Below are positions 1-5,867 of a DNA stretch of 64,000 bases, one piece after another. The stretch comes from Candidatus Poribacteria bacterium (GTDB taxonomy: Bacteria > Poribacteria > WGA-4E > WGA-3G). Each line of letters opens with the position of its first letter. Position 1 is the stretch's first letter. The notes below the pieces were generated by a model. That model ran no database searches and was not told the origin of the DNA. It saw only the letters and a program-made list of their open reading frames with translations. The position numbers and the translations under genes were made by a program. The stretch covers positions 1 to 64,000 of the forward strand of contig CBDBFU010000012.1 in NCBI GenBank assembly GCA_965205025.1, read 5' to 3'.

Positions 1-1230
1 TTTTTTAATTCGGTAAATTTTATTTTTGTGCTATCCTCTTGTTCAAGGAGGTATTTTATTCATGGCAAAACATCATAAACTTGAACTCAGTGAAACTGAA
101 CGACAAAAACTCGTTGAACTCCGTGATAAAGGCGAACCGGCTTATCTACGAGAACGCGCTGCTGCCCTTTTGAAAATAAGCGAGGGGTTTTCCCCTCACA
201 AAGTCGCCCGAAAAATGCTCTTGAAAGAACGCGATCCTGATACGGTCTATTCGTGGCTTCACCGATACAATGAAAACGGTATTCAAGGTTTATTCTATAC
301 ACCCGGTCGTGGTCGCAAACCTGCTTATTCCCCTAAATCCCCCGAAGAAGCAGAGGCGGAGGTCTATAATACTATCGCACAGGGACCTGAACAACATAAT
401 CCGCATCAAACACGATGGACACTCCGATCCCTTGGAAACATCGTCCCTTGGCTCAGTGATGTGTCTGTGCCGGGTATTCACAAAATCCTTAGTCGACTCG
501 GTCTCAGCTATAAACGCGCTCGCTTATACATACATAGTCCGGATACAGACTATGCCCAAAAAATAGACAGGGTCCAGCAAGTTTTGGAAGAGACCCGTCA
601 ACATCCACAGACCTGTGTTGCGCTTTACCAAGATGAGTTCTCGTTTTATCGCAACCCTACCATAGCAAAAGACTGGGCACAAACAGGCACGAAAACACCT
701 TTAGCCCGTCAGAGCTACAGACACAACCAAACGTGCTATGGGATCGGGGCTCTGAACCCACATACTGGAGATGTTGTTTACCAGCAAGTTTCACGCTGCA
801 CTGCTGAAGCACTTCATTCTTTTTACACCGAGATTTGCCAACGCTACGCAAACAAGCAACGGATATATTTGATACAAGACAATTGGTCAACCCACTTTCA
901 AGCTAACTTATTGGAAGCACTTCTCCCGCAAACAGCATCGTTTGTGAAACCGAAGCCACCGAATTGGACAGGTAAACCCTCAGAGAAAATCGGAACACTA
1001 CAAAAACTTCCGATTGAGATAATACAACTACCGACTTATGCGCCGTGGACGAACCCGATTGAAAAGTTATGGCGATGGGTGCGTCAATCGGTTTTACATA
1101 ACCATCGTCATTGCGATGATTGGGAAATCGTGAAAGACAAGGTGATTAGTTTTATGTCGCAGTTCATAGGAGGATCACAGATGCTGCTACGCCAGATCGG
1201 ATTATTACCGAATTAAAAAATTAATCTTCA
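1..1230 (+). mobile_element. IS630-family insertion sequence (left end slightly cut by the window edge)
   Basis: Inverted repeats TTTTTTAATTCGGTAA (1-16) and TTACCGAATTAAAAAA (1205-1220). The right end continues TTAATCTTCA and is followed by TA. Encloses the transposase ORF. Confidence 0.85.
62..1216 (+). CDS. IS630-family transposase (single uninterrupted ORF)
   Basis: N-terminal HTH region (..W..RYNENGIQGL..PGRGRKP), then DDE motifs YQDE, LIQDN and LPTYAPWTNPIEKLW. GGAGG RBS before ATG 62; the ORF track starts at GTG 26. Confidence 0.92.
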   Translation: MAKHHKLELSETERQKLVELRDKGEPAYLRERAAALLKISEGFSPHKVARKMLLKERDPDTVYSWLHRYNENGIQGLFYTPGRGRKPAYSPKSPEEAEAEVYNTIAQGPEQHNPHQTRWTLRSLGNIVPWLSDVSVPGIHKILSRLGLSYKRARLYIHSPDTDYAQKIDRVQQVLEETRQHPQTCVALYQDEFSFYRNPTIAKDWAQTGTKTPLARQSYRHNQTCYGIGALNPHTGDVVYQQVSRCTAEALHSFYTEICQRYANKQRIYLIQDNWSTHFQANLLEALLPQTASFVKPKPPNWTGKPSEKIGTLQKLPIEIIQLPTYAPWTNPIEKLWRWVRQSVLHNHRHCDDWEIVKDKVISFMSQFIGGSQMLLRQIGLLPN

Positions 1231-1939: not shown

Positions 1940-2066
1940 CTTCGTAGGGGGTCTCCCCACCCGATATTTGTATCGCAATCTTCCTGATTCCGTCTTGCGG
2001 TATAGCACAAACTAACAGTTTATACTACAAAATTTACGCATATAGTGACAAATTATTTACACACCC
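1940..2066. repeat. About 130-bp REP-containing repeat ending in TTTACACACCC (copy 1)
   Basis: Close match to 4297-4427. Contains GTAGGGG..CCCC and GCACAAACT..AGTTT hairpins. Confidence 0.8.
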
Positions 2067-2070
2067 CTTA

Positions 2071-2099
2071 TTGACATTCAGATTGAGAGTAAGTATACT
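2071..2099 (+). promoter_or_regulatory. sigma70-like promoter upstream of the peroxiredoxin gene
   Basis: TTGACA-17 bp-TATACT. Confidence 0.65.
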
Positions 2100-2183
2100 T
2101 ATAGAAACAGGTCGTTATCCGTTATTAAAATAAAATCTATAACGGCAAATCTAATACAAATAACAATTTAGAGGAATTAAAAG

Positions 2184-3193
2184 ATGTATCATTTTAGATC
2201 TACTCGTTATTCATGTATCATCGTTTTAATTACAACACTTTTGATTCCATTAGTTTTAGCGGAGAATGAAGTGGAAAAAAAATAAAAAGCTTGAATGTCG
2301 GGATGGTTGCTCCTGATTTCACACTAAAGGATGAAACAGGAACAGAACGGAATCTCACAGAATTCTTAGGTAAGAAGAACGTAGTACTTGCTTTTTATCC
2401 AAAAGATTTTACAGGTGGTTGAACTGCTGAACTACAATCGCTCCGGGATAAATTGAGCGAAATAGAAAAAACAGAAACTGTTCTCTTTGGTGTGAGTGTT
2501 GACCCTGTTGATTCACACAAGAAGTTTAAAGAGGATGAGAAATTCGGTTTTTCATTACTTGCCGATACTGAGTTTGATGTCAGCAGACAGTATAGTGGGA
2601 TAATGGAAAGGTTCAACGCTTCAAATAGAGTCACCTTCATCATTGATAAGGCTGGATATATTCGAGCAATTGATAAAGAAGTGAAGGTAAGAACACATGG
2701 TGAAGATGTTGTAAAAATGCTTGGTAGTGTCCTCCCAAAAATAGAAGTAGGAGAGATGGCACCAGACTTCATTGCTACTGATAGTGAAGAAAAACAGTAT
2801 CAACTCAGCAAATTTAAGGATAAAAAGAATGTAGCATTAGTCTTCTATCCACGTGATTTTGGTCGTGGCTGAACGGCTCAAGTCTGCTCGCTCCGTGATG
2901 AGTCGAGTAATCTTGATGAGTACAATGTACAAGTATTTGGAATCACCTCAAATGATGCTGAATCACATCAGAAATTCTCAGACGAAAATAAATTAAACTT
3001 CCCACTGTTGTTAGACACTGATAGAAATCTTGCCTTATTGTATGGTGCAACTGACAAGTTAGAAGGAAGATTCAATCGTATCACAATAGTAATAGATAAA
3101 TCTGGGAAGATAATCCAGATTGACAAAGATGTAAATCCAGGAACACAAGGGCCAGATATAGTAAACTTTATGAAGTCGCATAAAACGAACTAA
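2184..3193 (+). CDS. Tandem two-domain BCP/PrxQ-type peroxiredoxin selenoprotein (two in-frame UGA = Sec), probably exported
   Basis: One frame from 2282 to TAA 3191-3193, interrupted only by TGA at 2420-2422 (FYPKDFTGG-U-TAELQSLRD) and 2870-2872 (FYPRDFGRG-U-TAQVCSLRD). It joins the track ORFs 2453..2872 and 3008..3193. A signal-peptide-like ORF from ATG 2184 is offset by one base at the A8 run 2275-2282. Confidence 0.85.
2438..2460 (+). promoter_or_regulatory. Candidate bacterial SECIS hairpin 1
   Basis: TCGCTC-CGGGATAAATT-GAGCGA: 6-bp stem starting 16 nt after the UGA. Confidence 0.6.
2886..2908 (+). promoter_or_regulatory. Candidate bacterial SECIS hairpin 2
   Basis: GCTCG-CTC-CGTGAT-GAG-T-CGAGT: stem with a bulged U. 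TCGCTCCG starts 16 nt after the second UGA. Confidence 0.6.
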
Positions 3194-3795
3194 TGATTCA
3201 GAAGACATTCTCGGGTTTTCCCGAATGGGTAGCGTTGGGCACGTCTGTTGTTTTTAGTCCGTTTATTGTTCCAATTGTTACGGCTGTTATTGTTATTCAA
3301 AAATATGCAATGACACGTCAGGATGTATTACTCTGGTTAGGGATTGTTACTTTATTTGTCACAGTTCTCCCAATTGTTGGTATAGTTCTCTTAGTTAGGT
3401 TTTCTAAGGTAGGAAATTTGCATCTTCCTGCCAAAGAAGAAAGACTGATTCCCCTATGTTTTATAGTACTCAGTATGATCTCTGGAACTATAATCCTATA
3501 CAAGATTGGTGCGACTGAAAAGATAATCCTTGCCTGTATTGCGTATATAGCAAATAGTATAGTTTTCTCTGCGATTACGCCACTCTGGAAAATCAGTTTC
3601 CATACCAGTGTGACAACCGGCTGTATAATGGTGCTGGTATTCCTTGTGAATACCAGTTTCATTTGGTTATTTCTACTCATCCCTCTAATTGCATGGGCAA
3701 GGATTTATAGAGAGCGACACACCTTCCTACAGACGGCTGTAGGCACGCTATTGGCAATAATCAATACCGCTCTCGTTTTCCATTTCTTGCAGTAA
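3193..3795 (+). CDS. Integral membrane protein, PAP2-like superfamily
   Basis: About 6 TM segments; KISFHT and AWARIYRERHT motifs. TAATG overlap with the upstream peroxiredoxin. Confidence 0.65.
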   Translation: MIQKTFSGFPEWVALGTSVVFSPFIVPIVTAVIVIQKYAMTRQDVLLWLGIVTLFVTVLPIVGIVLLVRFSKVGNLHLPAKEERLIPLCFIVLSMISGTIILYKIGATEKIILACIAYIANSIVFSAITPLWKISFHTSVTTGCIMVLVFLVNTSFIWLFLLIPLIAWARIYRERHTFLQTAVGTLLAIINTALVFHFLQ

Positions 3796-3939
3796 GTGAT
3801 TGTAAACTACTATTATATAAGCAAAATCTACTTTAATAAATTATGTGACTCTGTACCAGCACTAATGAATCCTTGCTATTTTAGTATGTGAAATGTATAA
3901 TTTATATATCTAATGATATTATTAACTAAGAGATTATAT

Positions 3940-4137
3940 ATGCACAATACATCAGAATCCATTTTGGAAGCATTCAATCAACTACCTGAATTAGAAAAAC
4001 ATGCTATTGGTTCTGAAATCATCAAACAGGTGGCTTTGTTGGATTTTCCACCTGTATCAGAGGACGAACTCACGGAAATTGCGGATATGGTTTTCCTAAT
4101 GCATGATGAAGCAGAGAAGAAGGATGCCGAATCCTAA
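3940..4137 (+). CDS. Small acidic protein, putative type II antitoxin
   Basis: Short acidic ORF (track start 3913) whose end overlaps a MazF/PemK-like start. Confidence 0.5.
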   Translation: MHNTSESILEAFNQLPELEKHAIGSEIIKQVALLDFPPVSEDELTEIADMVFLMHDEAEKKDAES

Positions 4138-4236: not shown

Positions 4237-4427
4237 GGGTGTGTAAAGTTTTTATCACCATAGGTGTTAATTTACTCATTAGACTCTTCTCTTCCTCTTC
4301 GTAGGGGCGGGGTCTACCCGCCTGATATTTGTATCGCAATCTTCCAGATTGCGTCTTGCGTTATAGCACAAACTAAAAGTTTATGCTACAAAATAGACGC
4401 ATATAGTGACAAATTATTTACATACTC
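4237..4427. repeat. MITE-like unit bounded by GGGTGTGTAAA / TTTACATACTC (copy 2 of the 130-bp repeat)
   Basis: Terminal inverted motif; 4297-4427 matches 1940-2066. Confidence 0.7.
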
Positions 4428-4569
4428 TGTATATTCATTTTGTTTGTATATCTTACCACTTTATGATATACTATCAGTGTGTTATTCCAACTTCATCATA
4501 CTTTTCTGTATATACCTTGGACAGACATTTTCCATGTTGTGGAATGAATTATAAGAAAGGAAACAGATT

Positions 4570-5327: not shown

Positions 5328-5867
5328 TTGATGATAATTCTTGGAATCGACCCCGGAATCGCAAATACAGGTTACGGTATCGTCAAATCTATATCCAATA
5401 AAATACAGCCACTCCACTATGGTCATATAAAAACCAGCCCCAAAGAATCATCTGAACTACGATTAAAAATTATATACGATACAATATTAGAACTCATTGA
5501 ACAGTTTAAGGTTGAAGAGGTGGTTATTGAAGATATTTTTTTCAATAAAAATATCAACAATGCATTTGTTGTCGGTGAAGTAAAAGGAATAGTAAAATTA
5601 GCAGGTGCTAATACAAAATCACCCGTAACTACATATACTCCCTTACAAGTTAAACAATCCGTTGTTGGGTATGGTAAGGCGGAGAAAATACAAGTACAGA
5701 GAATGGTTCAAGCCTTATTAAAATTAAAAGAATTACCTAAACCTGACCACGCTGCGGATGCTTTAGCTTTAGCAATTTGCCATGCACGTTCTCACAAACT
5801 CCTACACTTAAAACAATCAATTTCAACAAAACTCGCTGAGAATAAAAAGGATAACTCTTCAGTATGA
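5328..5867 (+). CDS. ruvC: Holliday junction resolvase RuvC
   Basis: ILGIDPG..TGYG, YTPLQVKQSVVGYG, DHAADALALAICH. Confidence 0.97.
   Translation: MMIILGIDPGIANTGYGIVKSISNKIQPLHYGHIKTSPKESSELRLKIIYDTILELIEQFKVEEVVIEDIFFNKNINNAFVVGEVKGIVKLAGANTKSPVTTYTPLQVKQSVVGYGKAEKIQVQRMVQALLKLKELPKPDHAADALALAICHARSHKLLHLKQSISTKLAENKKDNSSV

Follow-up and report, generated by a model that had tools for sequence, protein, structure and literature searches.

A gene on the forward strand of a 64,000-nucleotide (nt) stretch of Candidatus Poribacteria DNA (assembly GCA_965205025.1, contig CBDBFU010000012.1, positions 1 to 64,000; the whole stretch is called the window here) encodes two peroxiredoxin (Prx) domains in tandem, each with an in-frame TGA where the peroxidatic cysteine is expected. 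The third forward frame (frame 2) is open from 2270 to 3193 except for these two TGAs, at 2420-2422 and 2870-2872. Translation of 2270-3195 with TGA as selenocysteine (Sec, U) gives 307 residues with no further stop, in which Sec occupies residues 51 and 201. An earlier note on this DNA, made from the sequence by a model, had placed a single frame at 2282-3193, which stands. Its treatment of 2184-3193 as one frame does not, since the ATG at 2184 lies in frame 0 and the enzyme in frame 2. We consider it very probable that the gene product is a single exported protein of about 335 residues, made of two duplicated BCP/PrxQ domains with Sec at both peroxidatic sites. Conservation is given throughout for 59 orthologues, which remained when the loci of relatives had been pooled with those of named records and 8 exact duplicates, as well as 3 loci missed by the motif filter, had been dropped; they were aligned by MAFFT with C in place of U. 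The features of the gene are as follows.

2170-2175, forward strand: Shine-Dalgarno-like AGAGGA, 8 nt upstream of the ATG at 2184.
2184-2285, forward strand: putative signal-peptide open reading frame (ORF), 33 codons and TAA in frame 0, separated from the enzyme frame in the window.
2275-2296, forward strand: two extra, frame-breaking bases, one A of an A8 run (2275-2282) and a T at 2296.
2297-2668, forward strand: peroxiredoxin domain 1 (BCP/PrxQ type), the Pfam stretch at residues 10-133 of P0001, with P-x3-T-x2-U.
2420-2422, forward strand: UGA 1, peroxidatic residue of domain 1, probably read as Sec; TGA in 59/59 orthologues.
2438-2460, forward strand: hairpin 1, resembling a selenocysteine insertion sequence (SECIS), UCGCUC / 11-nt loop CGGGAUAAAUU / GAGCGA; loop starting 21 nt after the UGA.
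2747-3142, forward strand: peroxiredoxin domain 2 (BCP/PrxQ type), the Pfam Redoxin stretch at residues 160-291, with P-x3-G-x2-U-x4-C.
2870-2872, forward strand: UGA 2, peroxidatic residue of domain 2, probably read as Sec; TGA in 59/59 orthologues.
2886-2908, forward strand: SECIS-like hairpin 2, GCUCGCUC / loop CGUGAU / GAGU(C)GAGU with one bulged base; loop starting 21 nt after the UGA.
3191-3193, forward strand: TAA stop of the tandem gene, overlapping the next ATG (TAATG).

The earlier proposal of two consecutive BCP/PrxQ-like domains is borne out by both family models. The translation scores 224.8 bits against PF00578 (Pfam AhpC-TSA; cut-off 26), in two stretches at residues 10-133 and about 160-291, and 189.2 bits against NF006960 (the NCBIfam model for BCP thiol peroxidase; cut-off 140), again in two stretches. 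Each TGA, as had been claimed, falls at the peroxidatic position (Cp) of a P-x3-T-x2-Cp motif, and a catalytic Arg follows in both domains. The sequences PKDFTGGU-TAELQ, PRDFGRGU-TAQVC, NRVTFIID and NRITIVID, by which the earlier note had described the two sites, are all present in the translation. An AlphaFold2 model built on the 59-row alignment contains two Prx folds (predicted local distance difference test, pLDDT, 92.4; predicted template modelling score, pTM, 0.90), and each domain superposes on the structures of Bcp1 and AhpE/BcpB with a target template modelling score (TM-score) of about 0.85 (0.82-0.89). Between the two domains the identity is about 40-45%, and their Sec sites lie 150 codons apart in the gene.

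From these sites and from what surrounds them in the genome and in relatives, we infer that Sec is inserted at both UGAs. The machinery for it is encoded in the same genome (5.66 Mb, 38.5% GC), in which SelA (518.8 bits), SelD (364.4 bits) and a tRNA-Sec (78.5 bits with Infernal, also called by ARAGORN) that adjoins SelB were found; selA, selB, selC and selD are thus all present. The SelD gene (C4:104148-105074, reverse strand, locus L012) itself carries one in-frame TGA, and SelD is therefore probably a selenoprotein too. Among the genomes of 40 relatives, the best match is a tandem gene with two in-frame TGAs in 36, at 51-93% identity; these 36 belong to four families of one order, and the exceptions are G009 and the three genomes of genus g3. 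In G039 the tandem gene carries a TAA besides. Every one of the 59 distinct orthologues (51-95% identity) has TGA at the two sites, and tblastn shows stops at both in the 3 loci lost to the motif filter as well. When homologues are searched for Cys or TGA at the aligned positions, as the earlier note had proposed, the 42 single-domain loci from other phyla have Cys in 40 cases and TGA in 2. The downstream conservation that the note had looked to as a test was also found: the mean entropy at codon positions 1/2/3 is 0.37/0.33/1.37 before the first TGA, 0.56/0.35/1.39 between the TGAs and 0.70/0.42/1.34 after the second. Third codon positions are thus 2-4 times more variable than first and second positions in all three segments, and this excess before, between and after the TGAs argues for protein-coding selection along the whole frame.

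Could the TGAs be something other than Sec, that is, Trp or Gly codons under an alternative code, or true terminators followed by separate or dead ORFs? Gene callers have produced output of both kinds: database versions of some orthologues carry W at both sites, and others are split into fragments (P0122, P0125, P0212 and P0240), of which P0122 is the piece between the two TGAs. We regard both as gene-calling artefacts, and the splitting was foreseen in the earlier note. TGA acts as a stop in this genome: of 1385 open frames with 400 codons or more, 240 end in it. It terminates this same gene in 9/59 orthologues, and it closes ruvC in the window through an ATGA overlap at 5864-5867. Because it closes so many long frames and ends this very gene in relatives, TGA has not been reassigned. 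Terminators, for their part, would leave fragments that lack half a domain, and the coding signature persists beyond both TGAs. Since, in addition, the catalytic Cys of homologues falls at both sites in the alignment and the Sec machinery is complete, we give this explanation almost no weight, and continue with Sec at both sites.

Sequences from public runs touch on the gene in two further ways. A contig from metatranscriptome run X20, about 89% identical, covers 2199-3299 and continues into the next gene, and no change at 2420-2422 is among the differences listed, which extend to 2680; DNA carry-over is possible in that library, and the contig is a hint only. Small shares were also seen in sponge, coral and marine runs and were not used as evidence of habitat.

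Bacterial SECIS elements as a rule have their loop 16-37 nt from the UGA and a G early in the loop. Downstream of each TGA of the tandem gene lies a candidate hairpin, of which the second is the better supported. Hairpin 2 folds at -18.1 kcal/mol (z -2.1) and has an RNAalifold consensus in which 8 pairs, interrupted by one bulge, enclose the loop CGKGAU; 99.8% of its 424 cells are paired over 53 distinct rows, and 2 pairs (5 cells) are compensatory. None of 500 shuffles matched its pairing or its covariation score, and controls slid along the alignment were only 25-39% paired. Hairpin 1 (-8.4 kcal/mol, z -1.9), with a stem of six base pairs and an 11-nt loop, is paired in 89.9% of 306 cells over 51 distinct rows, with 2 pairs (4 cells) compensatory, both sides having changed. 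The core UCGCUCCGKGAU is common to both hairpins and at the same time encodes a conserved Ser-Leu-Arg-Asp, which fits a duplication of a putative Sec-BCP along with its hairpin. Codon choice just after the TGAs is restricted as well. The Leu codon there is CTC in 58/58 and 59/59 sequences, while the other Leu columns shown use 4-6 codons, and codon entropy is 0.51 bit in the 10 degenerate columns just after the TGAs against 1.68 bit in the 78 others (Mann-Whitney p = 7e-7, a value that overstates the case because the columns compared were picked after the data had been seen and the sequences are kin).

Two results weigh against the hairpins as SECIS elements, the first of which concerns hairpin 1. 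Across families RNAalifold returned no consensus for hairpin 1 with either 31 or 59 sequences, and within the genus its six-base-pair stem is invariant, most pairs showing no variation there. A search of 2000-3400 against Rfam (E <= 10) gave no SECIS family, only chance-level matches to small nucleolar and small RNAs. The site-1 sequence of other families fits a fold like that of site 2, and the register therefore seems shifted there. The site-2 register forced onto site 1 gave 69.5% pairing, no better than shuffles, and was rejected. The hairpin sequence of the Poribacteria is not shared by L093 and L094, two single-domain Sec-BCPs from other phyla. We also observed that the part of the window from ...FYP-x-DF... 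through the UGA and hairpin 2 (2838-2919) attracts a pile-up of many short contigs, present in runs X1-X3 and X20, that belong to other organisms and reach summed depths of up to about 1679; many related genes in those communities have this nucleotide stretch in common.

The N-terminus of the protein is where the window departs from its relatives. The ORF that starts at ATG 2184 encodes a basic N-terminus, a hydrophobic stretch of about 15 residues and VLA-EN before it ends at the TAA of 2283-2285, and the loci of relatives have the same GAGGAA motif ahead of their start codon. Compared with its two closest orthologues, the window has 2 extra nt, one in the A8 run and one at 2296. When these are omitted, a single ORF of 335 codons and a stop results, with Sec at residues 79 and 229. 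The one polypeptide of approximately 336 residues that the earlier note described is accordingly recovered as 335 codons, but only with two bases removed, not in the window as given. We compared Logan contigs of four runs with the window at 2100-3300, a region of 1201 bases. The region is spanned in full by contigs of two runs from two studies, X1 (1609 nt, depth 14) and X2 (2669 nt, depth 2); both lack the two extra bases and are otherwise identical to the window. Most likely, the frame break is the product of two single-base insertion errors of the assembly. Two such insertions within 22 nt (2275 and 2296) suggest that this assembly contains insertion and deletion errors.

The break could instead be genuine in the strain, leaving a pseudogene or a shortened, cytoplasmic enzyme that starts at TTG 2291 or ATG 2303. 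Both extra bases do stand in the sequence of the window, and forms with no evident signal exist in L043, of the same order, and in genus g3. The contig evidence is open to question, too: X1 and X2 could derive from a co-occurring, near-identical strain or share a sample with the window, X2 has a depth of only 2, contigs drop rare variants, and the piece from X3 begins at 2297 and so covers neither 2275 nor 2296. Set against this, X1 at depth 14 and X2, from separate studies, lack exactly these two bases and agree with the window at the other 1199 positions. Moreover, a Shine-Dalgarno-like motif is missing ahead of 2291 and 2303 but present (AGAGGA) ahead of 2184, and the remainder of the gene shows no decay. 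A genuine break thus appears improbable to us. We attach next to no probability to a programmed -1 frameshift, or transcriptional slippage, at A AAA AAA T (2276-2283) through which signal peptide and enzyme would be joined. A ribosome slipping back by one base on the A run would indeed reach the enzyme frame, but the orthologues examined have a continuous frame and need no shift, the A runs of the closest ones are interrupted (GAAAAGAAGAAA and GAAAATAATAAA), and the window departs from them by two separate insertions, not one.

The export proposed in the earlier note is probable. A signal-like N-terminus, taken as an in-frame Met and a hydrophobic 15-mer (Kyte-Doolittle, KD, >= 1.8) before domain 1, is present in frame in 55/59 orthologues, the exceptions being the window itself, L043, L046 and L080. 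A reservation applies here as well: the call comes from this hydrophobicity rule and not from a trained signal-peptide predictor.

The tandem gene is specific to its lineage. In the genome collection there are 38 loci with full-length matches, 37 titled (Candidatus or uncultured) Poribacteria and 1 titled 'uncultured bacterium'; the other 42 matching loci are single-domain and come from many phyla. A profile search of 1.84 billion representative proteins gave no other tandem with two active sites among the best 150 matches, of which 9 were inspected. These nine are Poribacteria fragments, exported proteins with a degenerate N-terminal domain and one Cys site, and fusions of BCP to a thioredoxin-like domain. 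We conclude that the tandem gene is real and that its predicted product is a lineage-specific double selenoprotein.

Related forms occur in and around the same lineage. Three loci of genus g3, in the same order (L128-L130), encode a single-domain Sec-BCP of about 153 residues that has U-x4-C and lacks an evident signal peptide; tandem domain 1 is the best match of its N-terminal part, domain 2 that of its C-terminal part. This form could be ancestral, or could have arisen through collapse by recombination between the near-identical UGA-hairpin regions. The genome G014 has a second copy, L131, a tandem paralogue in which the first domain has Ser for Sec and has lost the Arg, while the second domain is active. 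It resembles P0134, P0135 and P0189. All four share with the tandem a signal-like N-terminus, two Prx-fold domains and a similar length, and their C-terminal domain is an active BCP with a ...T/S-SLRD motif. They differ in that the N-terminal domain has no peroxidatic residue, so that one active site is left (Cys in P0134, P0135 and P0189; Sec in L131). Exported two-domain Prx-like proteins with one dead domain therefore exist in and beyond the lineage. P0128, P0265 and P0032 are also exported two-domain redox proteins of similar length, with the BCP domain first; their second domain is thioredoxin-like, with CxxC (TlpA/thioredoxin-like), and they have no Sec. Poribacteria genomes also contain several more Prx-like matches each with a single in-frame TGA (e.g. 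G000:C25:51035-51439), often in open frames of about 280-450 residues, which suggests that the lineage has a large set of putative Sec-containing redox proteins.

How does the tandem compare with proteins already described? Each of its domains has the family-level scores of BCP/PrxQ proteins (NF006960; PF00578) and shares with them the Arg; the P-x3-T-x2-Cp motif is complete, with U for Cp, in domain 1, and domain 2 shares the Cp-x4-Cr spacing between peroxidatic and resolving residues. In structure, Bcp1 (3drn, from S. solfataricus) and AhpE (1xvw) can be superposed on either domain. What sets the tandem apart from this family is Sec for Cys at both sites, the predicted N-terminal export signal and, in this genus, Gly for Thr in domain 2. 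The matches listed from the Protein Data Bank (PDB) each cover one domain only (query TM-score about 0.45), whereas the tandem has two in one chain. PrxU (Eubacterium acidaminophilum type; NF040737) has the same Sec as peroxidatic residue and the TxxU motif, in one domain with one Sec, where the tandem has two of each. The tandem is not a member of PrxU, since it scores 106.3 bits against NF040737, for which the cut-off is 270.

A 2026 review (PMC13188914) lists 119 prokaryotic selenoprotein families or subfamilies, 'a small subset' of which have 2-3 Sec residues, and gives for peroxiredoxin in its Table 1 'Peroxiredoxin (Prx), PF00578, TxxU, 1 Sec'. Two Sec residues in one bacterial polypeptide, which call for two recoding signals, also occur for instance in MbdU, in a methyltransferase/UXPK-star fusion, in TsoB and in the UxxU Prx-like thiol:disulfide oxidoreductases (PMC13188914). 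The sites of the tandem differ from those of the listed double selenoproteins in being duplicates, hairpin core included, at their distance of 150 codons. None of the 119 entries of that table joins two complete peroxiredoxin domains in tandem with a Sec in each. Sec-peroxiredoxins and bacterial proteins with several Sec residues are therefore both already known, and it is the tandem form that is absent from the 2026 inventory. A search of full-text literature, with supplementary tables outside its scope, found no description of this tandem; in the passages seen that pair Poribacteria with selenocysteine or selenoproteins, only sel genes and a [NiFeSe] hydrogenase are treated.

Immediately downstream of the gene lies the following.

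3193-3795, forward strand: PAP2-like membrane protein of 200 residues, its ATG (3193-3195) overlapping the TAA of the tandem gene.

The TAATG junction with a PAP2-like gene, noted earlier as translational coupling, is present as an overlap; the PAP2 identity is weak in Pfam (17 bits, below the 27.2 cut-off), although an Atlas feature search places the protein in PAP2-like clusters at 0.97. A PAP2-like homologue stands directly downstream in 36/59 loci, all of near relatives, and in 0 loci of other families. Since the linkage holds at genus level only, the PAP2-like gene is not a conserved partner of the enzyme. Farther out, a 138-nt direct repeat (1948-2085 and 4309-4446, 86% identical) flanks a cassette of the peroxiredoxin gene, the PAP2-like gene and a 74-residue ORF. 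With blastn against its own genome this repeat has 20 matches, of which 5 are 100 nt or longer, spread over 10 contigs; it is a dispersed repeat. The 74-residue ORF (3913-4137, forward strand) has no Pfam match and a homologue in 2/59 orthologous loci; it may not be a real gene. Upstream is an IS630-like transposase of 396 residues (26-1216, forward strand) with DDE_3 and helix-turn-helix (HTH) domains, followed by about 970 nt without a convincing ORF before the peroxiredoxin gene. Such a transposase stands beside the orthologue in 1/59 loci, the window's own.

The active-site residues give some indication of how the two domains may work. In domain 1, Thr, Sec and Arg are each present in 59/59 orthologues, as is the full P-x3-T-x2-U motif; the residue at U+5 is Q in 20 (including the genome studied here), R in 20, C in 11, K in 3, N in 3 and E in 2. 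In domain 2, 59/59 orthologues have Sec, Arg and the Cys at U+5, and the residue at U-3 is Gly in 36/59, this genome included, and Thr in 23/59, with the P and U of the motif kept. The difference between the domains drawn in the earlier note thus applies to this genome but not to the whole lineage: UxxxxC in domain 2 is universal, yet a resolving Cys is present in domain 1 of 11/59 orthologues, and the domain-2 Thr, replaced by Gly here and in the majority, is present in the other 23.

In the mechanism that we propose, the two domains would have arisen by duplication, and each UGA would be recoded by SelB and tRNA-Sec through its own hairpin, starting 15-18 nt downstream. The protein, judged from its signal-like N-terminus, would be exported and reside in the cell envelope. 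There each domain would reduce peroxide, with its Sec forming a selenenic acid. In domain 2 the Cys five residues on would resolve this acid as a Se-S bond, in the manner of the C-x4-C of PrxQ. The BCP/PrxQ family includes 1-Cys members, and domain 1, which in this genome has no resolving Cys, would require an external reductant, presumably a thiol. One observation weighs against two equivalent peroxidases: with Gly at the site of the catalytic Thr in 36/59 orthologues, domain 2 may not be a normal peroxidase.

This leads to another possibility, the intramolecular relay suggested in the earlier note, in which labour is divided between the domains and domain 2, having no Thr in this genus, would not itself attack peroxide any more but would use its U-x4-C to reduce the selenenic acid of domain 1. 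The pattern of conservation can be read in this way, since the Thr missing from domain 2 in 36/59 orthologues is kept in domain 1 in 59/59, and the resolving Cys missing from domain 1 in 48/59 is kept in domain 2 in 59/59. The pTM of 0.90 suggests a fixed arrangement of the domains in the model, and the related proteins P0128 and P0265 fuse a BCP to a thioredoxin-like CxxC domain. On the other hand, domain 2 has the full P-x3-T-x2-U motif in 23/59 orthologues and the Arg in 59/59, so that in much of the lineage it has the appearance of a functional peroxidase. We consider such a division of labour unlikely, though not negligible. In its strongest form, which we regard as doubtful, the tandem would be a two-selenium redox machine of the envelope, in which domain 1 attacks peroxide and domain 2, its catalytic Thr lost in this genus, serves through its Sec-x4-Cys pair as the resolving or reducing partner of domain 1. 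If this were true, oxidising equivalents would be passed within one exported chain, and the need for a periplasmic thioredoxin would lessen. The tandem would then be the first bacterial peroxidase with an intramolecular Sec-to-Sec relay, retained throughout a phylum of sponge symbionts whose members may be exposed to peroxide from their host. Our preferred reading remains that of two peroxidase domains, each with its own Sec.

In practice, the locus is a warning for annotation: standard gene callers cut the gene into three pieces or apply the wrong genetic code, and single-base insertions and deletions in this assembly can mimic frameshifts. For biology, its interest lies in the rarity of bacterial proteins with more than one selenocysteine and in the kind of duplication that it appears to represent, one in which the recoding hairpin was copied with a whole Sec-peroxiredoxin domain. 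The two copies have been retained for long, as is seen from the spread of the orthologues over four families of one order, with identities down to 51%. The tandem gene therefore offers a natural test case for two predicted SelB-dependent recoding events within one bacterial message, for the reason why Sec is retained at both sites, and for the role that an exported peroxidase with two active sites, as predicted here, may play in sponge symbionts.

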